This document shows, piece by piece, positions 13,342 to 42,586 of a stretch of DNA of 51,229 nucleotides. How positions within the stretch are numbered: position 1 is the stretch's first letter; every line of letters starts with the position of its first letter. Made by a program: the position numbers and the translations under genes. The notes beneath the pieces were generated by a model. The model did no database searches, was not told the DNA's origin, and saw only the letters and a program-made list of their open reading frames with translations. Source of the stretch: Deltaproteobacteria bacterium (GTDB lineage Bacteria > Myxococcota > JACRCW01); the NCBI GenBank assembly GCA_016218805.1, contig JACRCW010000021.1, forward strand, positions 1-51,229, given 5' to 3'.

Positions 13342-14910
13342 TCACGGGCAGGTGGAGTTGCCACAGCTGGTGGCGACCGGGAACACCCCGCCGCGGCGGT
13401 ACAGGCTCCCCGCGCTCACCTGGATGGTGCCCGGGGTGATGGTGCTCCCGGCCTGCGCGTTGGCGGCGTCAAACACGCCCATGGCGTCCACCAGGATCCC
13501 GTAGCTGAAACCGGTGGGGACCCACGTCAGCACCTTCCCCGCTGACGTGGACACCGCCATGCTGGAGTTGCCGGAGACCCGCAGCGCGGTGCTGGCGCCG
13601 CTGCGCCCGGTGAAGGTGTACGTGGTGTCCGCGTTGGTGAGCAGCTGCACGCGTGACTGCTCCGTGGCGGCAATGCCGTACATCACGTTGGTGAGCGTGA
13701 TGGGCCCGCTCACGTCCAGGAACGCCCCCTGGATGGCCAGCAGGGACCAACTGTTGTTGCCGCTGACGGTCACCCCCGCCACGGAACAGTGCGAGGCCTG
13801 CCCGCAATACACGCCCATGGACCCGTTGTTGTCCGCCACCAGCGGTGCGCCGAGCGAGAGGCGCGCCTGGAACTGCACCAACACCCCGTAATAGGTGTTG
13901 CCGGACAGCGTGACGACGGACGTGGCGCTGGTGGCACGCGTGGATCCCGCGCAGTACCAACCGGTGGACGTGTTGTTCTCCGACCGCACGGCGCCGCTGA
14001 GCGTGCAGTGGCTGCGTTCACAGATGATCCCCAGGCTGGCGCGTTGGACGGTGGTGTCCGCAATGTCCAGGTTGTCCGCGTGGAAGCCGCGGATGCCGTA
14101 GTAGACCACGTCCGCCACCGTCACCCCGACGACGGACCCGCCAAACGCGGACGCGTAGTAGATCCCATGGGACGCCACGGCGACCGTGGGCGCGGCGGCC
14201 AGCGCGCCTGACAGCGTGGTCAACGCGGCGCCGGCGCCCAGGATGTTGACGCGGTACCCGCGGCTGATGGTGGCCTGCGCGGTGGCGCCCACAGGGAGCG
14301 GGAAGGTGCCGGGACCCACGTGCACGTTGCACGCATCCGGGCCCACGTCCGGCAGCAGGTCCACCGCGCGCTGCACGGTGGTCACCGCGCAGCGCGTAAC
14401 CCCGGCAGACGCTGCGGCGTCCGCCAGGCCGTCACAGGTCGAGTCGTCACCGTCAGTGCGCACGTACAGTTCCACCGCGCCGCGGGTGCGCCGCGCCAGC
14501 GTGGAGATGCTGCCCGGCGCTGCGTGCACCGCCTCATCTGCGTGGCGGGCGTACGGGACGGAACCCACCGGCTGCGCCGTGACCAGCGCCGCGCCGTCCA
14601 CGCTCACGTCGTACGTGACGTCGCTGCCGTCAAAGAACCCGGGGCAGGACGCGGTGTCCACACCGGCCTGGAAGGTGCCGTCCGTGGCGTTGGGCGTGAG
14701 GGTGACATCCGGCGGCTGGCAGGTGGTGGTGCCCTTGTGGAACTGGAAGGAGAGCACGTGCGGACCCGCCAGCGGGGCCCCCGCCGCGTCTTGCAGCGTG
14801 CCGGAGTAGTACAGGGTGGACGGCGAGAGGCCACCGCGTTCCGCACGCGCCAGCCAGCCGCCCACCACGCCCCCCACGACGAGCGCCGCCGCCACCGCGT
14901 GTTTGTTCAT
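13342..14910 (-). CDS. Secreted right-handed beta-helix (tailspike/pectin-lyase-like) protein
   Basis: Signal/anchor; YSGTLQDAAGAP..SVPYA domain; LYVRTDGDD..TTVQRAVDLLP..GPGTF helix cap; repeated S.N..YG(V/I) coils. ATG at 14910 overlaps upstream stop (ATGA). Confidence 0.75.
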   Translation of the reverse strand: MNKHAVAAALVVGGVVGGWLARAERGGLSPSTLYYSGTLQDAAGAPLAGPHVLSFQFHKGTTTCQPPDVTLTPNATDGTFQAGVDTASCPGFFDGSDVTYDVSVDGAALVTAQPVGSVPYARHADEAVHAAPGSISTLARRTRGAVELYVRTDGDDSTCDGLADAAASAGVTRCAVTTVQRAVDLLPDVGPDACNVHVGPGTFPLPVGATAQATISRGYRVNILGAGAALTTLSGALAAAPTVAVASHGIYYASAFGGSVVGVTVADVVYYGIRGFHADNLDIADTTVQRASLGIICERSHCTLSGAVRSENNTSTGWYCAGSTRATSATSVVTLSGNTYYGVLVQFQARLSLGAPLVADNNGSMGVYCGQASHCSVAGVTVSGNNSWSLLAIQGAFLDVSGPITLTNVMYGIAATEQSRVQLLTNADTTYTFTGRSGASTALRVSGNSSMAVSTSAGKVLTWVPTGFSYGILVDAMGVFDAANAQAGSTITPGTIQVSAGSLYRRGGVFPVATSCGNSTCP

Positions 14911-15563
14911 GGGAATCCTCCCTGCAGGATGGTGTTCCCGTCGCTGCCGCGCGCGGTTGGACCGGAGCGGAATGCGCCGCGCAGCCGCACCGCGCCATCT
15001 GCGGCCGCGGCCGACGGCAGGAATTCTCCGCGCAACCGCGGCGGGCCGGACACCGACGCGGCCGAGGAACTCAACGGCGCCGCCGAGGTTCCGGACGACG
15101 GCAGTGCCGAGGCGGACGATGAAAGACCGGTGGCCGACGAGGACGGCACGGATGACGACGCCCGCGACGCGGACGTGGCCGACGAGGAGGGCGCTGACCC
15201 GGTGCCGGACGATCCGCGCGAAATGGACGACGACGGCTGCCACGCTGAGGACGGGACGCCCGACGACGACGACGACGACGACAACAACAGCGACGATGCC
15301 GGGAATGAGGACGTCCCCCCGCCCTTGCCGTTCTCCCCGGTACTCCGGCGGCAGTGCAGGCGGTCCGGGTCGCACGTCCAACCCGCGGGGCAGTCCTCGT
15401 CGTGCTCGCAGCCCGCGTACTCGGGGCAGCCGCCCGCACACAGCAGCAGGACGGCGGACACGGCGGCCGCGGCCCGGTCACGTGCGCGTGGCAAGCAGCC
15501 CTCCCATCCAGGCCAGGCCCACTGCCGCACACGCCAGACCCGCCACGCCCAGCAGCACGGCAC
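14907..15563 (-). CDS. Cys-rich/Ser-rich lipoprotein (start uncertain, possibly GTG 15461)
   Basis: LLLCAGG-C, CEHDEDCPAGWTCD..C module, poly-Ser linker, short C-terminal LRGEF/LRGAF/LQGGF repeats; stop overlaps next ATG. Confidence 0.6.
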   Translation of the reverse strand: MPCCWAWRVWRVRQWAWPGWEGCLPRARDRAAAAVSAVLLLCAGGCPEYAGCEHDEDCPAGWTCDPDRLHCRRSTGENGKGGGTSSFPASSLLLSSSSSSSGVPSSAWQPSSSISRGSSGTGSAPSSSATSASRASSSVPSSSATGLSSSASALPSSGTSAAPLSSSAASVSGPPRLRGEFLPSAAAADGAVRLRGAFRSGPTARGSDGNTILQGGFP

Positions 15564-20063: not shown

Positions 20064-22325
20064 ATGCGGGTCATCCCACATGTGGTGCTGGCGGCCGCCC
20101 TGGGCGCCGCGGGGACGGGTTGCCACACGGCGGCCTTTGTCTGCGGGTCTGATGCGGACTGTGACCAGGTGCACGGCTGCGACCCCGCAGACCGCGTGTG
20201 CCGGCGCCGCTGCACCGGCGCGTGCGCGGGGGGCCTCACCTGCGAGGACGGCCTGTGCCGCCCGGGATCCGCCGGTGCGGCATCCTCCTCGTCCTCGTCG
20301 GGTGTCGCGCCCGGAACCTCCGGCGCTACCAGTTTGGCCACGGTGACCTCCAGCGCCCCGGCAACCTCCACCGTTCTGACCAGCTCTACCGGAACCTCCG
20401 CGCCCGCCGCCGCGTCGTCGTTTTCGTCGTCGTCTTCGTCGGAGGGACGCTCGTCATCTGGCACCAGCCTCCCCACCGCCACCTCCCAACCGGAGGTCAG
20501 CTCCTCCGCACCCGGCGCCACCTCCGGGCCGGACGTCAGCTCGTCCTCCGGCCGCGGGCGGTCCTCCTCGTTCGGCCGTGCCTCCGCGTCCTTCACGCCA
20601 GCACGCTCCAGCTCCGCGGTGCTGGCATCATCCGCCGCCGCCCTCTCTTCCTCCGCCGCCCCCCCGGCTGCGGTGAACGCGCTGCCAGACCCGGTGGGCG
20701 CGTACGTCGCGGGGAGCTGCAACCGCCTGCGTCTGGTGATGGTGGATGCCAATGATACGCCCGCCACCACCAACGCGGTGCTGTCCCTCAACCTGTTCAC
20801 GTATGACGCGCTCGGCCAGTTCTTCGCGGATTCGGACACCACGTGTTCCGCTCCGCCCATTGCCGCGCTGGATGTCCTGGCAGGCGCCGTGGAGGCCCAC
20901 GTCCGCGTGGTGCTCCGGACCGTCCCGTCCACCACATTGGGCGCCATGAACGCATTTGGGGGACCGGCCCGCACGGCCACCGTGAGCGTGATCCCCTCCG
21001 CGCTGCAGGTCACCGCACCCACCTCCCTGCTGGTGGGCGAATGCTCCGGCGCCATCCGCGTCCACCTGTTGGACAACGCCGGCCAACGCGTTGCGGCGGG
21101 CTCGGTCACCGTCACGCTGGACGTCACCGAGGCCCCCTCGCAGGTAGAGCTGTTCTCCTCCGCCAATTGCACGGGTTACCCCTCATCCACCGCGCAGGCT
21201 CTCTGGAACACCACCAACGGCGCGGTGTTCTCCGCCCGCGGTTTGCGGGATCACGCCGAAAACCTCCGAATCTCCGCCGCCGGGTTGGAGCAACTCCACG
21301 CGCTGACCTTTGACGCGCGGGTGCAACGCGGCACCTGCTTCCTGCTGGCCAATTCCGGCGCCGTGGATTGCCCGGTGTACCGCGCCGTGCGGGACGTGAA
21401 CCGCACCATGATGCTGTTCTCCTCGCGTTTCACGGACAATACGCCCCGGAACTCCGCCATCACCTGTCAGCTGGCCAATACGTCCACCATCGCCTGCCGG
21501 CGCGCGGGGACGGACGGCGCCATCGCCGTCATCTCCTGGCAGGTGTTTGAATCCGCTACCGGGCTGTCCGTGCAGCACCTTACCTCCGGGTGCACCTCGG
21601 ACACGGGCACGTTCATCACGCTGCCCACACCCGCCACGGCCTCCTCATTCCTCCTGTTCAGCGCCCGCGGCGGCGGCGGCACCATCAATGATGATGACTT
21701 CCGCACCGCGGAGCTGCAGCTTCCCTCAACGGTGATTGTGCGCAATGGGCGTCCGGCGTGCATCCCCGTCAGCAGCGGCGGCGAGGACTACGCGCTGCAG
21801 GTGGTCACCTGGACCGGCGCGTCCGTGGTTTCCGGCACGCTGCAGGTCCCCATCAACGCCGGCTCCATGGGCGTGGCGGCCACGGGCTCGGCCGCGCTGG
21901 CAACGTGGCGCGCCTCGGGCTCACCCACCGCGTGTGCCGCGTTCACGGAAGCGGAACCCGCGGGAAACCTGGTCACACTGTTGCGGGGAAACTCTGACAC
22001 GGGTTGCGCCACCGCCGCGGTGGACACCACCTGGCAGGCGCTGAGCTTCCCCGCGGCGGTCACCGTCACTGCGTTTGGCCTGCAATTCAGCGGGACGTCC
22101 GCAACCTGGCCGCTCAACAGCAACGTTGACCCGGGGAGCACGTTCGTGTTCGCCAGCGGGCAGGGCTACTCAGGGCAGGGCGGCGGAACCGTGGCGGGCA
22201 TTACGTCCGTGGCGTCTGACGCGGTGGCCACGCTGGATGTTTCGTTGTCAACGTTGACGGTGACGCGCGGAACGGGGACCGGGGCGGTGCGGTTCCTGGT
22301 GCAGGTGGTGTGTGTGCCGCCGTGA
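20064..22325 (+). CDS. Large surface lipoprotein (Cys-rich module, Ser/Thr linker, beta-rich domains)
   Basis: AGTG-C lipobox-like site; CGSDADC..C..C..C; long Ser-rich spacer. Confidence 0.7.
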   Translation: MRVIPHVVLAAALGAAGTGCHTAAFVCGSDADCDQVHGCDPADRVCRRRCTGACAGGLTCEDGLCRPGSAGAASSSSSSGVAPGTSGATSLATVTSSAPATSTVLTSSTGTSAPAAASSFSSSSSSEGRSSSGTSLPTATSQPEVSSSAPGATSGPDVSSSSGRGRSSSFGRASASFTPARSSSAVLASSAAALSSSAAPPAAVNALPDPVGAYVAGSCNRLRLVMVDANDTPATTNAVLSLNLFTYDALGQFFADSDTTCSAPPIAALDVLAGAVEAHVRVVLRTVPSTTLGAMNAFGGPARTATVSVIPSALQVTAPTSLLVGECSGAIRVHLLDNAGQRVAAGSVTVTLDVTEAPSQVELFSSANCTGYPSSTAQALWNTTNGAVFSARGLRDHAENLRISAAGLEQLHALTFDARVQRGTCFLLANSGAVDCPVYRAVRDVNRTMMLFSSRFTDNTPRNSAITCQLANTSTIACRRAGTDGAIAVISWQVFESATGLSVQHLTSGCTSDTGTFITLPTPATASSFLLFSARGGGGTINDDDFRTAELQLPSTVIVRNGRPACIPVSSGGEDYALQVVTWTGASVVSGTLQVPINAGSMGVAATGSAALATWRASGSPTACAAFTEAEPAGNLVTLLRGNSDTGCATAAVDTTWQALSFPAAVTVTAFGLQFSGTSATWPLNSNVDPGSTFVFASGQGYSGQGGGTVAGITSVASDAVATLDVSLSTLTVTRGTGTGAVRFLVQVVCVPP

Positions 22326-22534
22326 GCACCGCGGCATCCGTCATCCGGAGGACGGCCTAGGCCGGGTGACCTCCGCTTCTCGACGGAACCCCATCCGCTT
22401 CATGACTTCGGCCGGTGGACGGACTCCGGATAGGTCGATCATCCGATGGTAGGGGGACGAACCACCTTGTCGCAGGCCTCGATACACGCCTTGTGCCCCG
22501 GTCGCGTGTGGCCGGGCCGCCAGGAGAGGCCGCC

Positions 22535-23740
22535 ATGCGTATCAACAGCAACTTCGCGCAGACACTGATGGGGATGGTGGAACGCATGTTCCAGGCCTCC
22601 ACGCAGCCCGCCGCCCTGCCGGCCACCGCCGGTGGCCCCGCGCTTTCGCCGTTTGGGCGGGATGGGTTTGAAATGGCGCGCCGCAACTGGATGCAGGGTC
22701 TGTCCGGCGCCACCCAGCTGGCCCCCGGCGGCCGCCCGGACATCCCCACCAAGGACCCGGTGACTGACCCGCAGCCGCAGCCTCCCACGACGGACAACCC
22801 CACCACGCCCATCTCCGACCCGCAGCCGCAGCCGCCGCAGAGCAAGCGGAAGGTGTTTGTGTTCGGCAACAAGAAGCACCCGCGCACGCTGGGCAGCTTC
22901 CTGAAGAAGGCGCAGAAGTACGGCATCAACATTGACCCGTCCAAGTTCACCCCTGAACAGCTCAAGATGAAGATCCCCGCGGGCAAGTCCATCGTCGTTT
23001 CAGACGGCGGCGAGATCCTGGGCATGAAGGACACGCGTGACGTGATGGGCGACGACAACCTGGGCGTGCGCGGTCACCTGCGCGGGCGCGGTGACCTGGA
23101 TGACACGCACACCGTGTCCCGCCAGGGCTATGAGACGGTGGGCCGGGGCGGGGACGTTGAGGTCAATGGCCAGAACTACGAGGTGGACAACACGTTCCTC
23201 AAGTCCCCCGTGGCGCTGGACCTCAACCACGACGGGAAGATTGGCACCACGGGCGCGTCCACCGCGCAGAAGCGCGCGGATGGCAAGGTGGGGAAGACCG
23301 TGATGTTTGACGTGGACGGTGACGGCAAGAAGGACCGCACCGAGTGGATGTCCGGCAACGGCGACGGGCTGCTGGTGGATGACCGCGACGGTGGGGCCAC
23401 GCGCGCCATGAAGGGCAACGGCGAGATTGACGGGCGGCGCCTGTACGGGGACCAGGGTGGTAAGTACGCCAACGGCTACGACAAGATGGCGCAGCGGGAC
23501 AGCAACCACGACGGCAAGCTCTCCGGCCAGGAACTGGAGGGACTCAAGGTCTGGGTGGACGACGGCGACGCGCTCATTGGCAAGGGCGAACTCAAGTCCC
23601 TCAAGGAACTGGGCATCACGGAGATGTCGGTGGGCATGCACACCGAGCAGAACGCGCGCGGTGAGGACCTGATGCGCTCGTCGTTCGTGCAGAACGGGCA
23701 GCAGCAGATGAGCGAGGACGTCTGGTTCGCCACGCACTGA
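22535..23740 (+). CDS. Protein with C-terminal FrpC self-processing-module-like Ca2+-binding domain
   Basis: AGGAG RBS; SPVALDLNHDG, FDVDGDG..TEW, DGLLVDD, NGY...DSNHDG, LKVWVD, ELKSLKELGI, DVWF. Confidence 0.75.
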   Translation: MRINSNFAQTLMGMVERMFQASTQPAALPATAGGPALSPFGRDGFEMARRNWMQGLSGATQLAPGGRPDIPTKDPVTDPQPQPPTTDNPTTPISDPQPQPPQSKRKVFVFGNKKHPRTLGSFLKKAQKYGINIDPSKFTPEQLKMKIPAGKSIVVSDGGEILGMKDTRDVMGDDNLGVRGHLRGRGDLDDTHTVSRQGYETVGRGGDVEVNGQNYEVDNTFLKSPVALDLNHDGKIGTTGASTAQKRADGKVGKTVMFDVDGDGKKDRTEWMSGNGDGLLVDDRDGGATRAMKGNGEIDGRRLYGDQGGKYANGYDKMAQRDSNHDGKLSGQELEGLKVWVDDGDALIGKGELKSLKELGITEMSVGMHTEQNARGEDLMRSSFVQNGQQQMSEDVWFATH

Positions 23741-23927: not shown

Positions 23928-26336
23928 ATGACGTTCTCCTCCCGGCGTTCCGCGGCAACGCACCGCATCCCCCGGCCGTGGCCTGCCTGCGCGGTGCTGG
24001 CGCTGGCGTGGGCGGCCGCACCGGCGCAGGCAGACTTCTTTGGGCTGGAGCCGGGAGCGCGCGTCCGCGGGCACCAGGACCTGGACTGCAAGAAGTGTCA
24101 CGCCGAAGGGACGGGCAGCGGCATTGACCGCAACAAGTGCCTGGGGTGCCACGACCACCGCGACCTGCGCGCGCAGGTGGAGCACGGGCGCGGGCTGCAC
24201 GGCCGGCCCGAGTTCCAGAAGAGCTGCGAGAAATGTCACGTGGACCACAAGGGTGAGAAGGCGCGGGTGATTGACTGGAAGCTGGAAGGCGGAATGGACC
24301 AGTTCAACCACGCCAAGACGGGCTACGAGTTGGAAGGCCGGCACCGCCGCGTGAAATGCACGGATTGCCACAAGGCGCGGTTTGAGCGGTCCGGGACACC
24401 GCGTTTCCTGGGCCTGGACCAGAAGTGCCTGTCCTGCCACCAGGACGTGCACAACTTCCAGAACACGCGCAAGGAGCTGACGGACTGCACCGTGTGCCAC
24501 CAGTTTGACGCGCGCGAGATAGCGAGCCAGCAGGCGGTGCTGCGCACGTTCAACCACGCCGCGGTGACGGAGCACGCGCTGCGGGGCGCGCACGACGACA
24601 TCAAGTGCACGAAATGCCACACCCAGGGCAAGGCGTTCAGGATGGCGCAGAAACCGCAGGGCTGCGCCAGCTGCCACAAGGACCCGCACCGCAACGTGTA
24701 CACGGCGGAGGGCCGGTCCTGCGAAAAGTGCCACGTGGAGGACAAGGCGAGCTTCAAGGAACAGCGGTTTGACCACGGCAAGACGCGGTTCCCGCTGCAG
24801 TTCACCCACGCGCGCACGGCGTGCACCAAGTGTCATCCCAAGGAGGTGCTGAAGTCCCCCGCGCTGGACTGCCTGGGCTGCCACCGCGAGGACAATGTGC
24901 ACGTGGTGGCGGGCGCGGACCGGTTTGACGGCGTGGCATGCCAGAAGTGCCACACACCGCAGGGGTTCAAGGGGCGCGTGATCTTCAACCACGGCCAGGA
25001 GACCCGGATGAAGCTGGCCGGGCGGCACGCGGAGGTGGGCTGCGCCGGCTGTCACCGCGGGAAACCCAAGGCGGAGGTGCGCACGGCGGAGGACACCTTT
25101 GAGCGGTTCAAGAGCGCGGAGTGCATTGGCTGTCACCAGCACCGTGAGGCCCACCAGCGTGCGTTCCATGACACGCCACAGGTGTGCACGCGCTGCCATG
25201 TGCCGGGGTCCGACAACCTCAAGCTGCCGCCGCACGACAAGCTCTCCGAGGTGTTTGCGCAGGCGGGCGCACACGCGGCGGTGAGCTGCGAGAAGTGCCA
25301 CGGGGAGGGGATCAAGAAGCTCAAGGTGGGCGCTGACTGCGTGACGTGTCACGAGGACAAGCACCGCGGCACGCTGGGCGAGGGTAAGAACTGCAAAGCG
25401 TGCCACACCGAGGGCTACGCGTTCCTGCAGGTGAGCCTGGATCATGACCGCGACACGCACTACCCGCTGACCGGGCGGCACGCGTCCGTGCGGTGCGCGC
25501 GGTGCCACCCGGGCGCACCGGCGACCTACAAAGTGCCGGAGCAGAAGTGCGTGGACTGTCACGGCGCGCAGGACGTGCACGCGGGGAAGCTGGGCCTGGA
25601 CTGCGCCCGGTGTCACACGCCGTCCGGTGGCGCACCCCGGTTTGACCACGCCCGGATGACGCGCTTCCCGTTGGAGGGTGCGCACGCGCGGGCGGAGTGC
25701 GTGGGATGTCACGCGCTCCCGGAGCGCGGGCCGGATGGCCAACCGGTGGTGGACTGGCAGTTCCGCGCACCGGGTAAGGACTGCAAAACGTGCCACGGCG
25801 ACCGGCACGGCGTCTCCGCGGCCTCCACGTGCGCGCGGTGCCACGGCATGGAGGACTGGCGCACGCGCATTGTGGACCGCTACCACGACGTGCCGCCGTT
25901 CAGCCTGCTGGGACAGCACTCCGACCTGGAGTGCACCAAGTGCCACGGCCAGTCCGCGGACCTCACCGGCACCGGCACGCGCTGCGAGAGTTGCCACCGC
26001 CAGGATGACATCCACGGCGGCGCGCTGCGCGAGTGCCAGCAGTGCCACCGCGTCCAGGGTTGGATGCCCTCATCCTTCACGCACGCCACCACGGGCTTCC
26101 CGCTGCAGGGCATCCACCGCACGCTGGATTGCCGGCAGTGCCACGGCGTGGGCGCGTACTCGGGGATGAGCAGTGAGTGCATCAGCTGTCATCTGAGGGA
26201 CTGGGCCAACGCTACTTCGCCGGTGGCCAACATCTTCCACAACGCTGTGGTGCAGGACCCCAACTGCCTCCCGTGCCACAACCAGGTCTCCTGGTACCGC
26301 GGCCCGCGCGGTGAACTGCGGAGGAACCTGCGGTGA
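23928..26336 (+). CDS. 30-heme cytochrome c built of ten triheme repeats
   Basis: 30 CxxCH motifs counted by hand; repeat F(D/N)H..T.(F/Y).L.G.H; Sec signal ending AQA-D; start may be ATG 23895 or 23928. Confidence 0.93.
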   Translation: MTFSSRRSAATHRIPRPWPACAVLALAWAAAPAQADFFGLEPGARVRGHQDLDCKKCHAEGTGSGIDRNKCLGCHDHRDLRAQVEHGRGLHGRPEFQKSCEKCHVDHKGEKARVIDWKLEGGMDQFNHAKTGYELEGRHRRVKCTDCHKARFERSGTPRFLGLDQKCLSCHQDVHNFQNTRKELTDCTVCHQFDAREIASQQAVLRTFNHAAVTEHALRGAHDDIKCTKCHTQGKAFRMAQKPQGCASCHKDPHRNVYTAEGRSCEKCHVEDKASFKEQRFDHGKTRFPLQFTHARTACTKCHPKEVLKSPALDCLGCHREDNVHVVAGADRFDGVACQKCHTPQGFKGRVIFNHGQETRMKLAGRHAEVGCAGCHRGKPKAEVRTAEDTFERFKSAECIGCHQHREAHQRAFHDTPQVCTRCHVPGSDNLKLPPHDKLSEVFAQAGAHAAVSCEKCHGEGIKKLKVGADCVTCHEDKHRGTLGEGKNCKACHTEGYAFLQVSLDHDRDTHYPLTGRHASVRCARCHPGAPATYKVPEQKCVDCHGAQDVHAGKLGLDCARCHTPSGGAPRFDHARMTRFPLEGAHARAECVGCHALPERGPDGQPVVDWQFRAPGKDCKTCHGDRHGVSAASTCARCHGMEDWRTRIVDRYHDVPPFSLLGQHSDLECTKCHGQSADLTGTGTRCESCHRQDDIHGGALRECQQCHRVQGWMPSSFTHATTGFPLQGIHRTLDCRQCHGVGAYSGMSSECISCHLRDWANATSPVANIFHNAVVQDPNCLPCHNQVSWYRGPRGELRRNLR

Positions 26337-28564
26337 CGCGCACGGCGTTGCTCCCCGCGCTGGTTTCGCTCTTGCTGCTGCCGGGGCGCGCGTTCTCCGC
26401 CAACGAGACGCCCGCCCCGGCGCCGCCTCCGCCGCCCGTGGCCCAACCCACGCATGCGCCCGCGTCCCCGCGCGCGCCCGGGAAGAAGCCCCCCGCACAA
26501 GCCACGCGCCACACCCCGCGCGGGCTTCCCAACACGGTGGATGGGCGCGTGTGGACGTCCACGCTGTACACCGTGAGCCAACCGCTGGGTGTGGAATGGG
26601 GCTACGGGCAGGTGGGTGCGCAGGTGGACGCGGAGCAACTGTTTGGCACGCCGGTGGGGGTGCACGTTGACGGTTTTGTGCAGCAGCGCCTGTACCAGCG
26701 GCCGCTGCGGCTGGGGCCGCCCGTGCTGTTTGGTCCGGAACCGTGGTCCGGCAGCGGTGTCCGCCATCCGCGCTACCTCACGTATGACCGCCTCACGGAA
26801 GCCAACCTCAGCGTGAAGACCCGGTGGGCGGATGTCTTTGTAGGTCGTACGATCGTACCCAGCGCGTTCCAGGCCATGGTGGACGGCGTGGCGGGCAGCG
26901 CGGCGGTGCTGCACTGGGGACGCGTGGGCGCGTGGGCGGGGCTCATGCCGGACCTGTGGCACCCGCGCATGTGGCTGGACCGTGACTACCGCAGCCTCAG
27001 CGGGTTGTTCCCCGCGGACGGTGACACCGCGTTCACCGGCGACGCCGTGGGGGGCGAACTGGCGCTCATTTCGCGCGGGCCGCTGCGCCTGGTCTCCGGG
27101 CCACTGGACGGGCAGACCCTGTTCAACCTCCGCTTTGCCACGGCGGGTGCCAGCTTCTCCACGCGCTTCCCCATGTTCACCTCCGACACCAGCGCCCAGC
27201 TCATCCTGTGGAACCCGGCCGCGCGGTGGACGGTGACCTCCGGTACGCCGTCTCCCGGCGCGCTGGGCTTCAACGCCTCACTGCCCACGTCCTGGGTGGA
27301 CGCCGCGCTGGTGAACCACCTGATGACATTCAAGCCGCTGCGGCCGCTCAATTTCCACTTCCGTTCATCGTGGGATGCGTGGGGTGCGCTGCGGTCCCTG
27401 GACGTGCGGCGCGTGGATCCCTCCGGCAATCCCGTGGGCGCGCTGCGCCACCCGGTGGGTTTCACGGACCCGCTGGTGGACCAGACCGGCGGCCTGCGCG
27501 AGCTGCTGCTGGACGCCACCTTCCGCGGTGACTGGCCCTTTGGGTTGTCCGTCCAGGCGCATCACTACCAGTCACTGGTGACGTCACAGTCTTGGCGTTT
27601 CTACCAGTCAGACCTGGTGCAACCGGGCGTGTCAGAGCAGTTTGCCGTGGCGGCGGGCAACCCGGGCGCCCCGCCGGGAGAACGCCAGCAGCTCATCCTC
27701 AATGGCAAGAAGCTGGACCTGCAGACGTTGGCCATGGTGCAGCGCGAACGCCTGCGCGCAAGCGGCTGGGTCAGCCCGCTGGGTTTCCTGTTCAAGGACA
27801 GCTCGGCGCAGCTGTACGGCGAGGTGTTTGTGGAGTGGCGGCGCGATCACCCGCGGCTGCGCCCCGAGGGGGATGCGCTGTGCATGCTGGACAAGGATGG
27901 TGACGGCGTGCCGGAACCCTACGGCACCGCCTCCGAGTGCCGCGTGTGTCAGGCGCAGCGCGTGGACGCCGCCGGCAATCCCGTGCTGGATGCGCAGGGC
28001 AACCCCACCTACCAGCTGGCCTACGGCGAGACCTGCGGCAGTGCCGGCGCCAATCGCCTGGCCCGCCCCGACGACACCGTTCGCTACGGCGGCACGGTGG
28101 GCCTGCGTGATCCCACGCTGTACGACTCCGTCACCTACGATCTGTCGCTCACCGGGATGGACGGGTGGACCAACCGTGCGGTGGTAGCGCGGGCGCGCGT
28201 GGGGGCGTTGGTGTTCGGCCAGGTCAATGTGGACCTCGGCATGACCTATGAGCTCAGCTTCAACCAGCGCTATTTCACGTCAGACGCGCCGTACAACGTG
28301 ACGGGCGTGTCCAAGACCGTCAACGGCTACTACCCGCGCAACGCCGTGGGACAGGCGTTCGTGTTTGACGGGAACGTGCTGTACCGCGTTGCGTGGGGAC
28401 TCACGTTTGAGGCGAGCTACCTGATGTTCTTTGAGGAGGAGCCCGTGGTGCAGGACTTCATCTTTGGCAACGGGGCCAACGCGGCGGGCGTGGTGGGCTA
28501 CCTGCCGCGGGACACGCACCAGGCACAACAGCTGTTCCTGCTGCGCGCGTCCTACCGGCTCTAA
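26333..28564 (+). CDS. Putative outer-membrane beta-barrel protein
   Basis: Signal AFSA-N, alternating amphipathic aromatic-rich strands, C-terminal LFLLRASYRL; GTGA overlap with the cytochrome gene. Confidence 0.72.
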   Translation: MTRTALLPALVSLLLLPGRAFSANETPAPAPPPPPVAQPTHAPASPRAPGKKPPAQATRHTPRGLPNTVDGRVWTSTLYTVSQPLGVEWGYGQVGAQVDAEQLFGTPVGVHVDGFVQQRLYQRPLRLGPPVLFGPEPWSGSGVRHPRYLTYDRLTEANLSVKTRWADVFVGRTIVPSAFQAMVDGVAGSAAVLHWGRVGAWAGLMPDLWHPRMWLDRDYRSLSGLFPADGDTAFTGDAVGGELALISRGPLRLVSGPLDGQTLFNLRFATAGASFSTRFPMFTSDTSAQLILWNPAARWTVTSGTPSPGALGFNASLPTSWVDAALVNHLMTFKPLRPLNFHFRSSWDAWGALRSLDVRRVDPSGNPVGALRHPVGFTDPLVDQTGGLRELLLDATFRGDWPFGLSVQAHHYQSLVTSQSWRFYQSDLVQPGVSEQFAVAAGNPGAPPGERQQLILNGKKLDLQTLAMVQRERLRASGWVSPLGFLFKDSSAQLYGEVFVEWRRDHPRLRPEGDALCMLDKDGDGVPEPYGTASECRVCQAQRVDAAGNPVLDAQGNPTYQLAYGETCGSAGANRLARPDDTVRYGGTVGLRDPTLYDSVTYDLSLTGMDGWTNRAVVARARVGALVFGQVNVDLGMTYELSFNQRYFTSDAPYNVTGVSKTVNGYYPRNAVGQAFVFDGNVLYRVAWGLTFEASYLMFFEEEPVVQDFIFGNGANAAGVVGYLPRDTHQAQQLFLLRASYRL

Positions 28565-28791
28565 CCGGAGCGCGGCACCGGGTCCTCCTCGGGGTGCGCG
28601 CCAATGTCCTCACCCGCGGGCGCGCTCACCCGCTGGGCGAGCACCCGCAGCGCCGTCTCCAGGCGCTCCACCCGCTCCTCCAGCTGCATGAGCCGCCGGT
28701 CCTTGTCCGCCACCACGCCGCCCAGCGTGACGAGTTCCTCCTGCGCAAACGCGAGCTTGATCTCCAAGTTGTCCAGGCGCGGGTCATCCAT
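28561..28791 (-). CDS. slyX: SlyX family protein
   Basis: RLDNLEIKLAFAQEEL...L coiled coil, acidic Pro tail. Confidence 0.75.
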   Translation of the reverse strand: MDDPRLDNLEIKLAFAQEELVTLGGVVADKDRRLMQLEERVERLETALRVLAQRVSAPAGEDIGAHPEEDPVPRSG

Positions 28792-31034: not shown

Positions 31035-31230
31035 CGTCTGCCTCCCGCAGACGCCCTGGTGACTCCAAAGTCAAAGTCATCCGGTTGTCCTAGGACGGTC
31101 GCGCGGATCTCCACCGCTGGCCGCTCCACGTCGTCATGTTGGCGCGCCTGCGTCCCGGAGCCATCCGCTTGACCGATGCGCGACCGAACGCCGTCCGACT
31201 AGATTGACACGCACGTCAACGGAGGCGGCA

Positions 31231-32271
31231 ATGCGGAGAGCGGCGATGGCGGTGGGGGTGGCGGCGTGTGCATGCGTGACACAGGTGGAGTCCCCGGCGG
31301 CGGACCCGGTGGGCCTGGCCGCGGAGGGTGACAGCGTGCGCCGCGGTTTGTCCGTGGATGCGCAGCGGGCCCGCGCAGATGGCATCAAAGACGTGGCGCG
31401 GGCGCGCGGCAGCCGCAACCCGCTGTTGTTTGCGGCCATTGCGTACCACGAGAGCGGGCTGGCGCAGTGTTGGTCAGAAGCGACGTGGACGTGCCAGGGA
31501 CCGTGGTCAGACGCATGCGGCGGGCCGGTGCTGGCGGGCGCGGCAGATGGACCGTGCGCCAACGAACAGGGCGGCCTGGGCATGTACCAACTGGATTCTG
31601 GCACGCACGCGCAGACGCTGGGCGCGCACGGTGCGGACGTGCTGTCCCCGGAAGGGAATACCCGCGCCGGCATTGACTTCATCATCCACAAGACGCGTAT
31701 CTGCCCCAACACGCCGCAGTTTGGCGGTGACGACGAGGTGCTGGCGTGGCTTGACCGCGCGGTGCCCGGCAGCGCGGAATACGACGCATTCATGACGGCG
31801 ATGGCGTGGTGTTACAACGGGTGCGCGCCCAGCTACACATCCTGCAACCACCAGGCGGTGAAAGCATCCTATCGCGGTGCCGCCGAACACCTGCTCAGCG
31901 CGTTTGGGACTGCTTACTGGTTTGACGGCGCGGGGACGGCGGAACCACCGCCACCGCCTGCCGGCTGCGGCGCCGTCAGCTACCAGGGGTACTGCAATGG
32001 CACCACGGTGGTGTGGTGCGAGAACAACGAGTTGCGCTCAGCCAATTGTGACGCCCAGGGCCACGTGTGCGGCTGGGAGAGCGACGCCGTGGGGAACAAC
32101 TGCGTGGCCCCGCCGCCACCGCCGGGCTGCGGTGACGTGACCTACCAGGGATACTGCAGTGGTTCGACCCTGACGTGGTGCGAGCAGGACGCGATCCGGA
32201 CGTATGACTGCGCCAGCGCGGGCATGGGCTGCGGGTGGCAGGACGACGCGACGGGGAACAATTGCCGCTGA
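31231..32271 (+). CDS. Lipoprotein with lysozyme/lytic-transglycosylase-like domain and two C-terminal Cys-rich repeats
   Basis: GGAGG RBS; AIAYHESG, GLGMYQL, N..AG, YNG motifs; tandem GCG.V.YQGYC.G.T..WCE...C...G..CGW..DA.GNNC. Confidence 0.75.
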   Translation: MRRAAMAVGVAACACVTQVESPAADPVGLAAEGDSVRRGLSVDAQRARADGIKDVARARGSRNPLLFAAIAYHESGLAQCWSEATWTCQGPWSDACGGPVLAGAADGPCANEQGGLGMYQLDSGTHAQTLGAHGADVLSPEGNTRAGIDFIIHKTRICPNTPQFGGDDEVLAWLDRAVPGSAEYDAFMTAMAWCYNGCAPSYTSCNHQAVKASYRGAAEHLLSAFGTAYWFDGAGTAEPPPPPAGCGAVSYQGYCNGTTVVWCENNELRSANCDAQGHVCGWESDAVGNNCVAPPPPPGCGDVTYQGYCSGSTLTWCEQDAIRTYDCASAGMGCGWQDDATGNNCR

Positions 32272-35003: not shown

Positions 35004-36839
35004 TTACGGCTGCGCCACCGTGGCCACAGGCAGCGTGAACCAGAACAGCGCGCCACCGCCTGGGGCGCCCTCCACGGCCATCTTTCCGCCGTGGGCCTGC
35101 ACCACCTCCCGGGCAATGAACAGGCCGAATCCCGCGCCCTGCCGTGCCTGGCCGGGAACCCGGAAGAACTTCTCAAACACGCGCGTGCGGTATTGCGGCT
35201 CCACCCCGGGTCCGGTGTCCTGGACCTCGAAGCGCACCTGGCCGTCCTGGTGATGCGCGCGCAGCGTGATGCTTCCCTCGGGCGGCGTGTAGCGCAGCGC
35301 GTTGCCCACCAGGTTGTCGAACACCAGCGCGATACGATCCTGGTCCACGTTCACGGCCGGCAAACCCACGGGCTCATCCACCGTGAGACGCACGTTGCGG
35401 CTGGTGGCCTCGCCCTCGTGCGCCGTCAGCGCGGCGGCCAACAACTGGGATACCTCCACCGGACGCGTGGACACCGCCAGCGCGCCCCCCTCAATGCGCG
35501 AGAGGTCCAGCAGGTCATCCACCATGGACTGCAAACGCCCGCAATCATGCCGGGCGGCTTCCAGCAGGTCGCGCTGCTTGTCCGTGAGTTCCCCGACCAC
35601 GCCGTCCAGGCACAGGTGGATGGCCATGCGCAGGCTGGTGAGCGGGGTACGGAACTCGTGGGCCACGGTGGCCACCAGGTTGTTCTTCAGTTCGTCAAAG
35701 CGGCGCAGGCGGGTGACGTCCTGCAGCACCAGGGTGACCCCCACCACGTGGCCGTTCTCGTCATGCACCGGGGCCGCGCGCGGGAGCAGGTGCCGCTCCT
35801 GATCCAACGTCGTCACGCGCACCGCGTCCTCCAGGCCGCGGGGAACCCACGCCCCCTTTCCCGCGCGCACGTGGTCCCGCGTGCGCTCCACCGTTTCCCG
35901 CAGGACCGGGGGCAGACCGGCCAGCGGCTGGTCACCGGCCATGCGCACCCGCAGTACCTCCTCTGCCGGGAGGTTGAGGTTCACCAGCCGCCCCTGCGCA
36001 TCAAACGTGAGGACCGGGTCAGGCAGACTGTCAATGGCGGCCTGCGCACTGCGCTGCGCGGCCAGCAGTTCGCCCAGCGTGCTGCTCTGGTAGACCGCCA
36101 GGCGCTGGGCCATGGCATTGAACTCGCGCGTGAGCTCCGCAATCTCATCATTGCCCAGCACCGGCGCACGCGCATTGAAGTCCTGGTTTCCCAGGCTGCG
36201 CGCCGCCTGCGTCACGTCCTGCAGCGGGCGCAGCAGGCGGCCCGTCCAGCGTTCGGTGATGTACAGGCCCAGCACCATGGCGAGCGCCAGCACCCACAAC
36301 AGCGCGGTGCGGACGGCGGCCGCCGCGCGCTGCGCGTCCATGCTCTTGCGCACCACCGCGTCCTGGTTGATGACCAGGATGCGCTGCAGTGCCGTCGTCA
36401 CGCGCTGGAGCGCGGGCCGCGCCTCGCCCAGGTAGGTCTGGTTCCACTCCGGCCCGGGCGTCATCAGCAACAGGCGCTGCGTGGAGGCCGCGTACAGCGT
36501 GGCCGCCGCGCGCAACTCGCGCGTCACCAGGTCTTCACCCGGCTCGGTGATGTTGCCCTCCTGGATGCGCAGCTCGCGCTCCAGCCGCTCCAGGTGGTCC
36601 CGCGCGGCGGGCACGCCCACCGCGGCGCGGCCCAGCAGCGCATCCATCATGGCGCCGTCCACCCGCGCCACCGCGTCCTGCATCTTCTGCACGGCAAGAA
36701 TGGAGCGCTGGTTGTCCTTGAGGATGGCCTCCGCGCGCGTGGCCAGGCTGGAGACGGTGGCGAACGAGAAGATCCCGGTGAACGCGGTGGTGGCCACCAG
36801 CGGGACCAGCGCCAGGCGCAGCTTGGCGCGCAGCTTCAT
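35004..36839 (-). CDS. Sensor histidine kinase (periplasmic helical sensor, HAMP, PAS, HisKA, HATPase; KinB-like architecture)
   Basis: 2 TM, HAMP, AHEFRTPLT, NLVGNALRY, DTGPG, GAGFGL; ATGA overlap with kdpD fragment. Confidence 0.9.
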   Translation of the reverse strand: MKLRAKLRLALVPLVATTAFTGIFSFATVSSLATRAEAILKDNQRSILAVQKMQDAVARVDGAMMDALLGRAAVGVPAARDHLERLERELRIQEGNITEPGEDLVTRELRAAATLYAASTQRLLLMTPGPEWNQTYLGEARPALQRVTTALQRILVINQDAVVRKSMDAQRAAAAVRTALLWVLALAMVLGLYITERWTGRLLRPLQDVTQAARSLGNQDFNARAPVLGNDEIAELTREFNAMAQRLAVYQSSTLGELLAAQRSAQAAIDSLPDPVLTFDAQGRLVNLNLPAEEVLRVRMAGDQPLAGLPPVLRETVERTRDHVRAGKGAWVPRGLEDAVRVTTLDQERHLLPRAAPVHDENGHVVGVTLVLQDVTRLRRFDELKNNLVATVAHEFRTPLTSLRMAIHLCLDGVVGELTDKQRDLLEAARHDCGRLQSMVDDLLDLSRIEGGALAVSTRPVEVSQLLAAALTAHEGEATSRNVRLTVDEPVGLPAVNVDQDRIALVFDNLVGNALRYTPPEGSITLRAHHQDGQVRFEVQDTGPGVEPQYRTRVFEKFFRVPGQARQGAGFGLFIAREVVQAHGGKMAVEGAPGGGALFWFTLPVATVAQP

Positions 36840-37999
36840 GACGACGTCCCGGGGCGCTCGGGTCCGAGCGCGATGATGTGCAAGTCAAAATCCCGCGCGG
36901 CGTCCACCATCCGGTGGACCATGTTGGGGCGCAACACGCGCTTCCACCACGGTGCCTCCGAGCGACCGAGCAGGATGTGCGCCACCTGGTGGGTGGCGGC
37001 AAAGTTGATGAGCGCCGGCACCGGGTCCTGCGCCTGCAGGCGCGTCACCTCGGCGCCCAGCGCACGCGCCTTGTTGACGTTCTCCAGCAGGTGGCGCTGC
37101 GCCTCCGAGTCAATGTTGATGGAACTCTCCGCCGGAGTCTCCACGTAGACCACGTACCAGTCCGTGTTGAGCCGTCCTGCCAGCCGGGACCCCGCAAACA
37201 ACAGCTGCCCCGCGCGGGGCGAGCCGCTGGACAGGCACACCATGATGCGGCCGGCCACCTCGCGGCTGGCCTGGGTGGCCGGTCGCGAGGACAAGGCGGC
37301 GCGGTCCACACGCTGGGCCACCTCGCGCAGGGAGAGCTCGCGCAGCGACGTCAGGTTATCCATCTTGAAGAAGTGTTCCAGCGCCCAGCTGATCTTCTCC
37401 GGTGCGTAGATCTTCCCACTCTTGAGGCGTTCCAGCAGGTCCTCCACGGCCAGGTCCACGTTCACCACCTGGTCCGCCTGCCGCAGGAATGCGTCGGGCA
37501 CCACTTCGCGCACCTTCACACCGGTCACGCGCTCCACCAGGTCATTGAGGCTCTCCAGGTGCTGGATGTTGAGCGCGCCAATCACGTTGATTCCCGCGGC
37601 CAGGATTTCCACCACGTCCTGGTAGCGCTTGCTGTTGTGACACAGGGGGACGTTGGTGTGCGGCAGCTCGTCAATGATGGCCACCTGGGGATGGCGCTGG
37701 ATGATGGCCGCCACATCCATCTCCTCCACCACCACGCCGCGGTATTCAAAGCGGAGACGCGGGACCTGCTCCAGTCCCTCGGTGAGCGCGTGGGTGTCCG
37801 GGCGGCCGTGCGTCTCCACAAACCCCAGCACCACGTCCACGCCGCGCTTCTTGAGTCCGTGCGCTTCCTCCAGCATGCGGAACGTCTTGCCCACGCCGGC
37901 GGCGGGCCCCACGTAGACCTTCAGGCGGCCGCGCTTCTGGCGCTCCACCAGTTCCAGGAAGTCCTCGGCCCGGCTGCGGGTCAACGCGGGTTCCACCAT
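36836..37999 (-). CDS. kdpD: Truncated cytoplasmic KdpD (KdpD N-terminal domain + Usp domain; no TM or kinase)
   Basis: GRLKVYVGPAAGVGKT, ETHGR, IDELPHTN, KRYQDV, NIQHLESLND, LRELSLR, Usp domain. Confidence 0.9.
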   Translation of the reverse strand: MVEPALTRSRAEDFLELVERQKRGRLKVYVGPAAGVGKTFRMLEEAHGLKKRGVDVVLGFVETHGRPDTHALTEGLEQVPRLRFEYRGVVVEEMDVAAIIQRHPQVAIIDELPHTNVPLCHNSKRYQDVVEILAAGINVIGALNIQHLESLNDLVERVTGVKVREVVPDAFLRQADQVVNVDLAVEDLLERLKSGKIYAPEKISWALEHFFKMDNLTSLRELSLREVAQRVDRAALSSRPATQASREVAGRIMVCLSSGSPRAGQLLFAGSRLAGRLNTDWYVVYVETPAESSINIDSEAQRHLLENVNKARALGAEVTRLQAQDPVPALINFAATHQVAHILLGRSEAPWWKRVLRPNMVHRMVDAARDFDLHIIALGPERPGTSS

Positions 38000-38008
38000 G
38001 TCATGGGC

Positions 38009-38590
38009 TCAATGCACCGCACCAAACTGCGTGTCCAGTGCCAGGTTGAGACGCAGCACGTTGACCCGCGGTTCCCCCAGCAGGCCCAGGTCACGGCCCT
38101 CCACCATGGAATCCACCAGCGTGGACACGCGCGCCGGCTCCACGCTGCGCGCCGCGGCCACGCGCACCAGTTGGTAACGCGCCGCCGCCACGCTGATGTG
38201 CGGGTCCAGGCCGCTGCCGGACGCGGAGACCAGGTCCACCGGGATGTGCGTGGCCCCCGCGTGCTGCGCGGAGATGCGCGCGGCATCCGCGGTCACGCGC
38301 TCCCGCAGCCTCTTGGACGTGGGCCCCAGGTTGGATCCACCGGAGGCCAACGCGTCATACCCCGCGCCCGCCGCGGAGGGACGTGACCAGAAGTACCCGG
38401 CGTGCGTGAACGCCTGGCCAATCAGCGCGCTGCCCACCACCCTGCCCCGGTCATCCTTCACCAGGCTGCCGTTGGCCTTGTCCGCGAACAGCACCTGCGC
38501 CAGCGCGGTGACCGCGGAGGGGTACAACAGGCCCGTCAGCAACACGGTGAGACCGGTGACCCGCAGCGACGTCAGCAAGGTGCGCAGCAT
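38009..38590 (-). CDS. kdpC: K+-transporting ATPase subunit C
   Basis: ANGSL, GSALIGQ, YFWSRPSA, SGSGLDPHIS, VNVLRLNLALD. Confidence 0.95.
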   Translation of the reverse strand: MLRTLLTSLRVTGLTVLLTGLLYPSAVTALAQVLFADKANGSLVKDDRGRVVGSALIGQAFTHAGYFWSRPSAAGAGYDALASGGSNLGPTSKRLRERVTADAARISAQHAGATHIPVDLVSASGSGLDPHISVAAARYQLVRVAAARSVEPARVSTLVDSMVEGRDLGLLGEPRVNVLRLNLALDTQFGAVH

Positions 38591-38601
38591 GCTGCCTCCA
38601 C

Positions 38602-40650
38602 TCAGACCAGGCCCAGCGCGGACAGCGCCAGGTCCAACAGCTTGATGCCCGCAAACGGCGCCACCACGCCGCCCACGCCGTAGATCAGCAGTGACCGCCG
38701 CAGCAGCGCGGCCGCGCCCAGCGGACGGTACGCCACGCCGCGCAGCGCCAGCGGAATGAGCAGGATGATGATGAGTGCGTTGAAGATGACCGCCGCCAGG
38801 ATGGCGCTGCGCGGGGATGCCAGCCCCATCACGTTGAGCGGCGCAATCTCCGGGAATGCCACCACAAACAACGCCGGCAGGATGGCAAAGTACTTGGCGA
38901 CGTCATTGGCGATGGAGAACGTGGTGAGACAGCCGCGCGTCATGAGCAATTGCTTGCCAATCTCCACCACCTCCAGAAGCTTGGTGGGATTGGAATCCAG
39001 GTCCACCATGTTGCCCGCTTCCTTGGCGGCCTGCGTTCCGCTGTTCATGGCCACGCCCACATCCGCCTGGGCCAGCGCGGGGGCGTCGTTGGTGCCGTCT
39101 CCGGTCATGGCCACCAGCCGGCCCCGCGCCTGCTCGTCCTTGATCCGCTGCATCTTGGTTTCCGGCGTTGCCTGCGCCAGGAAATCATCCACGCCCGCCT
39201 CCCGGGCAATGGCGGCGGCCGTGTTGGGGTTGTCCCCGGTGATCATCACCGTGCGGATGCCCATGGCGCGGAACCGGTCGAATCGTTCCTTCATCCCGGA
39301 CTTCACCGTGTCCTTGAGGTGGATGATTCCAAGCAATTGCCCGTTGTCGCTCACGGCCAGCGGCGTCCCTCCGTCGTCACCAATGCGCCGGGCGATACTC
39401 CGGGCCTCCTCCAGCACGGTCACGTCCCGCACGCCGCTGGCCTGAATCACCGCATCCACCGCGCCCTTGCGCACCTGCCGGCTGCCCACGTCCGCCCCGC
39501 TCATGCGCGTGTGCGCGCTGAACGGAATGAACGTCACGCCGTTGTTGCCATCCGCGCGGGGTGGCGTGCCGTAGCGGCTGTCCGCCAGCGCCAGGACGGA
39601 ACGGCCCTCCGGCGTGTCATCCGCCGTGGAGGAGAGCACCGCGGCGTCCGTGAGGCGCTCCTGCGCCACGCCCCGCAGCGGGATGAATTCCGCGGCCATG
39701 CGGTTGCCCAGCGTGATGGTCCCCGTCTTGTCCAGCAGGATGATGTCCACGTCGCCCGCGGCCTCCACCGCGCGCCCGCTGGTGGCCACAATGTTCTTGC
39801 GGATGAGCCGGTCCATCCCGGCGATGCCGATGGCGGACAGCAACCCGCCGATGGTGGTGGGGATGAGACAGACCAGCAGCGCAACCACCACCGTGGCCCC
39901 CAGCGTCACGCCGGAATACGCCGCCAGCGGCACCAGACTGACGCAGGCCACCAGGAAGATCATCGTGAGACCCACCAGCAGGATGTGCAGCGCCAGTTCG
40001 TTGGGCGTCTTCTGCCGGCGCGCGCCCTCCACCAGGGTGATCATGCGGTCCAGGAAGCTCTCGCCGGGATTGCTGGTGATGCGCACCACGATGCGGTCGC
40101 TGAGCACGCGGGTGCCCCCGGTCACTGCGGAGCGGTCGCCCCCGCTCTCGCGGATGACCGGCGCGGACTCGCCGGTGATGGCGGACTCGTCAACCGAAGC
40201 GATGCCCTCGGTGATCTCGCCGTCGCCCGGGATGACCTGGCCGGCCTCAACGACCACCATGTCGCCCTTGCGCAGCACGCTGGACGGGACCTGCTCCTCG
40301 CGCCCCTCCACCAGGCGGCGGGCCATGGTCTCTTTGCGCATCTTACGCAGCGTGTCCGCCTGCGCCCGGCCCCGGCCTTCGGCCACCGCCTCAGCAAAGT
40401 TGGCAAACAGCACGGTGAACCACAGCCACAGCGTCACGCTGCCGGTGAACCAGGCGGGCTCCGCCCAGGCAGGACGGGCGAGCAGGTCCCGCAGCCACAG
40501 TGCGGTGGTCAACACGCTTCCCACCGCCACCACAAACATCACGGGATTGCGCATCACCGCGCGCGGGTGAAGCTTGGCAAACGCCTGGACGACGGCGTTA
40601 CGGAGGATGGGCCCGTCCCACAGCGAAACCGCCTTGAGCTTGGAGGTCAT
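38602..40650 (-). CDS. kdpB: K+-transporting ATPase subunit B
   Basis: [45 protein letters not shown]. Confidence 0.97.
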
Positions 40651-40652
40651 GG

Positions 40653-42374: not shown

Positions 42375-42382
42375 GATGGGCC

Positions 42383-42472: not shown

Positions 42473-42491
42473 GGCGAATCCTCCACGCCGC

Positions 42492-42575: not shown

Positions 42576-42586
42576 GGCGTTCTCCT

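Follow-up and report, generated by a model that had tools for sequence, protein, structure and literature searches.

The window analyzed here, a stretch of 51,229 nucleotides from a deltaproteobacterial assembly (contig JACRCW010000021.1), carries adjacent genes for a predicted periplasmic c-type cytochrome with 30 heme-binding motifs and for a predicted large outer-membrane β-barrel. Taking sequence and model evidence together, we consider it probable that the two proteins form an electron wire spanning the cell envelope, with the far end of the cytochrome docked in the barrel. The system appears to be a variant of a kind of conduit predicted previously, PCC3, which comprises a porin, a periplasmic cytochrome, an extracellular cytochrome, and an inner-membrane protein (PMC5566968), and it would work like PCC3 or MtrAB. 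What is added here is an invariant heme count of 30, a family of barrels with 22 predicted strands, and a membrane partner that is retained together with the pair although unlinked to it. The features of the system are listed in Table 1.

The cytochrome gene is an 802-amino-acid open reading frame (ORF) with exactly 30 CxxCH motifs and no CxxCK, CX3CH, or CX4CH motifs; in 2000 shuffles of the protein the CxxCH count averaged 0.4 and never exceeded 4. The motifs fall into ten triheme modules of 66 to 94 residues each (mean, about 77), giving 26.7 residues and 2.85 kDa of peptide per heme, and no catalytic motif was found. There are two small caveats, namely, that module 1 has a spacing unlike that of the other modules, and that an alternative start lies 11 codons upstream, the call in the genome collection being 813 amino acids. 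The protein has 61 Cys residues and 37 His residues outside the CxxCH motifs. In an alignment of 60 sequences (A4), selected on length and number of motifs among the 120 listed cytochrome matches, 32 of the nonmotif His are each retained in 98% or more of the 50 rows with thirty motifs, and no Met is conserved, none exceeding 44% in these rows; the window protein has lost none of the 60 motif Cys and none of the 32 conserved His. Because 32 His and no Met are conserved, bis-His ligation appears possible for all 30 hemes, with two His to spare. By pattern matching and inspection, the signal peptide ends at AQA|DFF and the mature start is common to the orthologues, and a lipobox pattern occurs in only one of 56 orthologue N-termini, where it lies in the middle of the signal. 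The original prediction's motif count and ten modules, its near-complete supply of bis-His ligands, and its cleavable-looking signal peptide thus all held up.

The cytochrome belongs to a very large wider family, with 2928 of 8000 candidates matching at E <= 1e-30 and with members of varied size. Of the listed matches of 770 to 930 amino acids, 50 carry 30 motifs, six carry 33, two carry 36, and single members carry 29 and 28; counts of 39 to 57 occur in the longer family members among the matches listed. Two family profiles score below their cutoffs on the protein, TIGR04257 (nanowire_3heme) at 16.6 bits against 40 and TIGR03508 at 42.2 bits against 192.2. A structural model built without hemes reached a pLDDT of 70 and a pTM of 0.34. 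A Foldseek search with this model yielded nothing at E <= 0.001, and a wide search nothing above Z 3.4, results that are uninformative on the novelty of the fold; the first module resembles residues 66 to 174 of chain 6r2q_A, which we take to be MtrA, in a weak match (Z 3.4, rmsd 3.2, 74 residues aligned).

The TGA of the cytochrome gene (26334-26336) overlaps the GTG start of the barrel gene at 26333, with GGAGGA at 26320-26325, an arrangement suggestive of translational coupling. An AlphaFold2 model of the 743-residue product, built from 25 sequences (pLDDT 72, pTM 0.67), has 22 strands and nothing plug-like before strand 1. All of the short turns (mean, 4 residues) lie on one side, predicted to be periplasmic, and all of the long loops (mean, 32 residues and up to 77) on the other, predicted to be extracellular, where they total about 350 residues; this is the classic topology of such barrels. 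A Cys pair in loop 8 (residues 517 and 536) is invariant in the nine closest barrels, and some have a second pair; these are probably extracellular disulfides. An ideal barrel of 22 strands is, with the shear number assumed, about 40 Å across in model terms. In TonB-dependent receptors, 22 strands enclose a plug of about 150 residues; by analogy, one or two 75-residue triheme modules could fit within such a barrel.

Searches of Pfam, NCBIfam, and PDB-sequence families found no match to the 743-residue protein, and no Pfam or NCBIfam barrel family was found for 25 members of its own family. Eight close homologues occur among 8000 candidates, a profile search gave 19 representatives at E <= 0.001, and a sister clade of 58 proteins matches the barrel at the profile level with a probability of 100. 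In a first scan of the genome collection with the barrel profile, none of 32 pattern matches was confirmed. Barrels from Bacteroidota-type clusters with the same cytochrome family match weakly (probability 49.9, E 1.7e-4). Fold searches placed only generic outer-membrane barrels on top, ushers and AlgE among them (best Z 14.3, with many near-ties), and 6r2q_B of the Mtr complex came only at rank 41 with a TM of 0.31. The GTGA overlap and the outer-membrane barrel proposed from the sequence alone both stand, and neither MtrAB nor any solved structure is a close match.

The conservation of the pair supports a joint function. At 22 of 22 complete loci, a cytochrome with exactly 30 motifs lies directly upstream of the barrel gene on the same strand, which rules out the two being chance neighbors and agrees with the co-occurrence expected in the original prediction. 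The repeat-number variation that it had proposed looking for was absent from these barrel-linked loci. They comprise the window, L005-L008, L019-L022, L071, L073-L078, L080-L084, and L086; 21 were located via the barrel and L086 via the other two genes, and two share one genome. Excluded were L072, where the contig end cuts the cytochrome (14 motifs visible), L079, where the contig stops within the barrel, L009 (identical to L008) and L010 (the same match figures) as repeats of L008, and four duplicate loci. No second or extracellular multiheme cytochrome was found at the window or at the other 21 loci; in the window no third cytochrome gene follows the barrel gene, and the convergent slyX ends the unit. 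The cytochrome and barrel trees show the same three clades, which is weak evidence, as kin share history. Close relatives are named Myxococcota, Myxococcales, or Deltaproteobacteria by their sources, and one relative's contig is titled seawater metagenome. Of the original prediction, the myxobacterial relationship and the wire-like cytochrome are both supported. One genome (G115; L022 and L080) has two 30-heme and barrel pairs with a single full-length inner-membrane partner.

This partner is encoded, at seven of the 22 loci, by the gene preceding the cytochrome (at L019, only its last 124 amino acids are on the contig). The protein of about 670 amino acids combines a degenerate cyclic nucleotide monophosphate (cNMP)-like domain, a 16-Cys ferredoxin domain (four predicted [4Fe-4S] clusters), and a five-helix di-heme-b membrane domain. 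The cNMP-like domain is a lead only (Pfam E of 0.07 in one of five proteins; Atlas score, 0.87). The Fe-S domain, the most conserved part of the protein, has its best solved match in HycB-type Fe-S subunits (E 9e-8), and PF13247 matches four of five partner proteins (best E 1e-5). The membrane domain has two WX3HX13H motifs and SGxxG, as in the definition of PCC3 and PCC4, and in five of five cases it matches the membrane protein of L035 (E 5e-19 to 3e-7), an Agarilytica sp. locus that we placed in PCC3 by gene layout and motifs. In related clusters from other phyla, a flavin/Fe-S oxidoreductase-like gene, recognized by sequence motifs, lies between the genes for the membrane protein and the cytochrome. 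Loci L029-L036 and L054, from Bacteroidota and other phyla, contain the same cytochrome family, with some cytochromes of up to 73 motifs, and several of them have a gene for an Fe-S flavoprotein-like product of about 450 amino acids between those for the membrane protein and the cytochromes.

The co-occurrence of the three genes was surveyed in 401 genomes of the phylum, in a strict first look in which the barrel counts are lower bounds. Two barrel profiles matched 7 and 14 genomes (20 in union), the membrane protein matched 22, and the cytochrome matched 27. The cytochrome occurs in every one of the 20 barrel genomes and the membrane protein in 19 of them, the sole exception being the assembly of the window; the conduit, originally described as a two-gene one, thus has a third, inner-membrane component in 19 of 20 cases. 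Three genomes with the membrane protein fall outside these 20, namely, G283, where a divergent barrel was found on opening the locus, and G148 and G142, which are 70% and 85% complete with short contigs. In one family (f6), all three genes occur in the same 14 of 20 genomes. In that family, none of the 13 visible loci has the membrane gene next to the pair; it stands elsewhere, behind a tetratricopeptide repeat (TPR) gene (7 of 7 opened, of 14). L007 has the same unlinked layout as the window.

In the relatives, the gene directly behind the TPR gene is the membrane gene at every visible locus (14 of 14), whereas the TPR orthologue in the present genome (L101, C40:45519-48107; 46% identity over 750 amino acids) precedes an unrelated gene; hence, the ancestral site of the partner is empty here. 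The partner has probably been truly lost from this genome, with a smaller yet appreciable chance that a relocated copy was left unassembled, the assembly being 92% complete. The TPR orthologues mostly stand opposite a Ser/Thr-kinase-like gene. L101 matches the CcmH/CycH TPR domain (48.9 against a cutoff of 42, in a group where TPR families cross-match), which may hint at a cytochrome-assembly chaperone. The genome has 38 frames with at least three CxxCH motifs, among them possible feeders of the wire: C146 encodes CbcL-like and NapC-like cytochromes, and C151 an NrfD-type module. The NapC match lies below the cutoff, and the CbcL-like label is our interpretation of a multiheme domain combined with a b561 domain. 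Two MtrC-like proteins are likewise encoded in the genome, and there are three COX1-family matches, two of them above the cutoff. Genes of the ResB and CcsA families are present and CcmE was not found in the genome; we read the maturation system as System II (ResB/CcsA). PF11854, the MtrB/PioB family, was also not found in the genome.

Several parallels with known systems bear on how the pair might work. A long, repeat-built periplasmic cytochrome that joins a porin and spans the periplasm is already the published hypothesis for PCC3 (PMC5566968, PMC9900912, PMC7096707). The periplasmic cytochromes of that group are repeat-containing and rich in hemes (median, 21), with few residues per heme (PMC5566968), and members with 21, 24, and 27 hemes may span the periplasm (PMC9900912). 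The present cytochrome shares this long, repeat-built organization, the triheme module, and the N-terminus, and it too lies next to a large barrel. From its N-terminus onward it aligns collinearly with L035's 21-heme protein (29% identity, E 3e-55), and it reaches only E 1e-13 with the 19-heme protein of the same locus. The relatives' five-helix domain with its two WX3HX13H motifs and SGXXG, for which a quinone-active role was proposed in PCC3 (PMC5566968), is a further likeness. On the other side, the cluster has no extracellular multiheme cytochrome, the barrel has no detectable similarity to the one PCC3-layout porin compared (L035; E 0.077), the heme number is fixed at 30 rather than being 21, 24, or 27, and the host belongs to the Myxococcota rather than the Proteobacteria. 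In addition, unlike in PCC3, the relatives' membrane domain is fused to the four-[4Fe-4S] and cNMP-like domains, is often unlinked, and was not found in this assembly. With neither an outer cytochrome nor a membrane protein in the cluster, membership in PCC3 proper is ruled out; so is a categorically new system, because PCC3 and PCC4 had already been predicted, and the new system for which the pair was a candidate in the original prediction is not supported. Subgroup II of PCC4 likewise has no extracellular cytochrome, and it has an Fe-S (PF13247) gene upstream of a similar membrane protein, once annotated as a single gene (PMC5566968). PCC4, however, has three small cytochromes of 4, 5, and 10 hemes, in contrast to the single 30-heme chain here.

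With MtrAB, MtoAB, and PioAB the pair shares a two-gene logic of a soluble-type cytochrome and a plug-less barrel, and MtrAB alone is able to reduce soluble acceptors (PMC7096707). It differs from them in having 30 rather than 10 hemes and a barrel of 22 strands without a match to the MtrB/PioB family, MtrB having been predicted to have 28 (PMC7096707). The single 30-heme cytochrome and the lack of a decaheme DmsE/MtrA-family or PF11854 match rule out membership in PCC4 and MtrAB. The Geobacter Pcc systems (OmbB/ExtB/ExtE) join a porin of the OmbB/ExtB family to a periplasmic and a lipoprotein cytochrome; no lipoprotein cytochrome is present in the window cluster. The comparison with the triheme polymers of Geobacter, made in the original prediction, holds only loosely. 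Like the dodecaheme GSU1996, the cytochrome is built of tandem triheme units, and c7 polymers of this type are its best solved-structure match in sequence (E 1.8e-5 with a single sequence, 5e-19 with a profile). It departs from them in its His spacing, its score below the TIGR04257 cutoff, its lack of a conserved Met ligand, and its coupled barrel gene; GSU1996 reportedly has a His/Met heme. Large cytochromes or conduits in other taxa, and not this pair, are described in the available parts of PMC7399161, PMC11495043, and PMC12133095. Titles and abstract openings in the literature covered, which excludes most subscription journals, describe no 30-heme Myxococcota pair.

Taking these findings together, we propose the following mechanism. 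The cytochrome would be exported by Sec, loaded with 30 bis-His hemes by System II, and adopt an extended chain of about 220 Å, a length scaled from an estimate in which about 27 hemes are needed across a 200-Å periplasm and 86 hemes correspond to 630 Å (PMC7096707). One end of the chain, probably the C-terminal modules, would dock in the barrel, whose periplasmic mouth is left open by the lack of a plug, and the last hemes might thereby reach the surface without a separate outer cytochrome. The choice of end is suggested by the first module, which is weakly like 6r2q_A and common to PCC3 cytochromes that pair with other barrels. In the relatives, the inner end of the chain would meet the five-helix di-heme-b protein, whose predicted cytoplasmic N-terminus bears the four [4Fe-4S] clusters and the degenerate cNMP-like domain. 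Electrons supplied by a cytoplasmic donor would then pass through the inner membrane, outward being the likelier direction; such a donor is favored because the Fe-S domain is conserved and related clusters have oxidoreductase-like neighbors. In the present genome, if the partner has been lost, CbcL-like, NapC-like, or NrfD-type membrane cytochromes would feed the chain.

A number of observations count against this proposal. The model of the cytochrome, at a pTM of 0.34, lends no support to an extended shape. The 22 strands make the barrel narrower than MtrB, whose solved structure reportedly has 26, and the long extracellular loops, modeled with low confidence, could cap the pore and perhaps leave the hemes unexposed. 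Six f6 genomes lack the genes, and five of these come from one genus (g8, 0 of 5); the f6 profile is therefore made of few independent events among non-independent kin. No homologue of the partner was found in the 92%-complete assembly by tblastn, a motif scan, a six-frame profile search, or a genome search. PCC3 itself has been called functionally unverified (bioRxiv 10.1101/2025.02.27.639646).

One possibility, encompassed by the proposed wire and somewhat less likely than a cytoplasmic donor and outward flow, is that the same conduit is quinone linked and respiratory, or serves inward electron uptake from Fe(II) or reduced organic matter, a use suggested earlier for PCC3, the Fe-S domain being an accessory. 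The b-heme protein would then pass electrons to and from the pool of quinones, and only the donor and direction would differ from those proposed above. A quinone-active role has been proposed for the PCC3 membrane domain (PMC5566968); moreover, this groundwater-associated genome keeps the pair intact without the Fe-S partner, and it has CbcL-like, NapC-like, NrfD-type, and MtrC-like proteins. Nevertheless, the strong conservation of the Fe-S domain and the flavin/Fe-S oxidoreductase-like gene in the clusters of other phyla both point to a cytoplasmic donor or acceptor. A more distinct and rather unlikely alternative is that the cytochrome is a nonconducting periplasmic electron store or bus, a capacitor tethered to a barrel that lets in a small substrate or serves as an anchor for the chain. 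Very heme-rich cytochromes have been suggested to act as stores, a lid or a binding site could be built from the roughly 350 residues in extracellular loops, and no outer cytochrome is present; yet there is no obvious reason for a store to have exactly 30 hemes at all 22 loci when longer listed family members have 39 to 57, and the plug-less barrel leaves its periplasmic mouth open.

We regard as improbable a scenario in which the barrel functions as a pore dedicated to export, leaving the cytochrome outside the cell, where it would be a surface wire. Large plug-less barrels do include export pores, and ushers and AlgE are among the generic fold matches, but the present cytochrome matches the periplasmic type of PCC3 (E 3e-55) rather than the extracellular type (E 1e-13), and it is co-distributed with the inner-membrane partner. 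Slightly more improbable still is that, in this genome, the pair is an orphan that ceased to work once the partner was lost. The missing partner and the unrelated gene behind the TPR gene would be accounted for, but both frames are intact with all motif Cys and conserved His kept, the unlinked layout recurs at L007 and 13 f6 loci, and the assembly is 92% complete.

The same genome has further candidate clusters. L098 (C54:26533-31679) combines a cytochrome of 33 hemes with a probable lipoprotein of 9 hemes and a barrel-like protein of 586 amino acids. In L099 (C36:5998-13896), a cytochrome of 30 hemes and a barrel-like protein of 636 amino acids occur with a probable lipoprotein of 30 hemes, which is convergent. 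These are paralogous clusters (40% identity between the barrels), neither of which has an inner-membrane partner, and in a search with a two-sequence profile their barrels did not match the family of the window barrel (E 0.3). An island at C165:2624-21074 has cytochromes of 14, 19, 4, and 9 motifs, two fused to long N-terminal repeat regions, together with resB, ccsA-family, and radical-SAM-like genes and with transposase/integrase-like genes nearby.

In the window, the gene at 22415-23740 (+) occupies the position of the relatives' inner-membrane gene; it encodes a Pro/Thr-rich linker and EF-hand-like Asp/Gly repeats (under the Pfam cutoff) and is absent from the other loci viewed. Three secreted-looking proteins belong to no clear family, namely, a β-helix protein with weak NosD/Beta_helix matches (13342-15441, -), a Cys- and Ser-rich probable lipoprotein (20064-22325, +), and a protein with Cys-rich C-terminal repeats (31204-32271, +). 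Kdp-like potassium transport and sensor genes, read from their translations, lie at 35004-44041 (-), preceded by a BBP2 porin (PF07642, 211 bits), and are ordinary; an IS91-type transposase fragment (PF04986, PF14319) lies at 47637-48314 (+). A scan of the locus for promoters and terminators gave chance-level results, and no RNA datasets containing it are listed. The window DNA occurs in groundwater runs of one study. Contigs from three of its DNA runs show 0 differing letters and 0 indels relative to the stretch; no single piece covers the whole, and one run is possibly the source of the window.

Table 1. Positions in the window of the features of the cytochrome-barrel system
Feature	Position	Strand	Size or basis
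30-heme periplasmic c-type cytochrome, PCC3-periplasmic type, ten triheme modules (predicted)	23928..26336	+	802 aa
Predicted cleavable Sec signal peptide, no lipobox	23928..24032	+	35 aa, ends AQA; sequence inspection
N-terminal module, hemes 1-3, common to PCC3-type periplasmic cytochromes	24033..24314	+	Alignment; weak fold likeness to 6r2q_A residues 66-174
Shine-Dalgarno-like GGAGGA and GTGA stop/start overlap (putative translational coupling)	26320..26336	+	Sequence
743-aa predicted outer-membrane protein: signal peptide, Pro/Ala-rich linker, barrel, C-terminal YRL	26333..28564	+	Sequence, model
Predicted 22-strand β-barrel without N-terminal plug domain	26537..28558	+	AlphaFold model
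Convergent slyX, operon boundary, outside the system	28561..28791	-	PF04102, 34.7 bits against a cutoff of 30

In its most developed form, which we offer as a doubtful conjecture, several uncultured Myxococcota would possess a fixed-length, quinone-independent wire from cytoplasm to surface (30 c hemes, two b hemes, and four [4Fe-4S] clusters), in which one cytochrome would be both the bridge across the periplasm and the surface terminus in a new family of 22-strand barrels. Perhaps gated by the cyclic-nucleotide-like domain, it would serve surface redox chemistry, such as iron acquisition or cell contact, rather than mineral respiration. The system offers the simplest version of the PCC3 type for experiments, with one barrel, one cytochrome of fixed length, and one membrane protein, and the fixed count of 30 hemes suggests a molecular ruler. 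It is thus relevant to whether a single long cytochrome bridges the whole periplasm and to the role of PCC3-type clusters. Further, because standard MtrB profiles miss this barrel family, surveys relying on them would overlook these Myxococcota.

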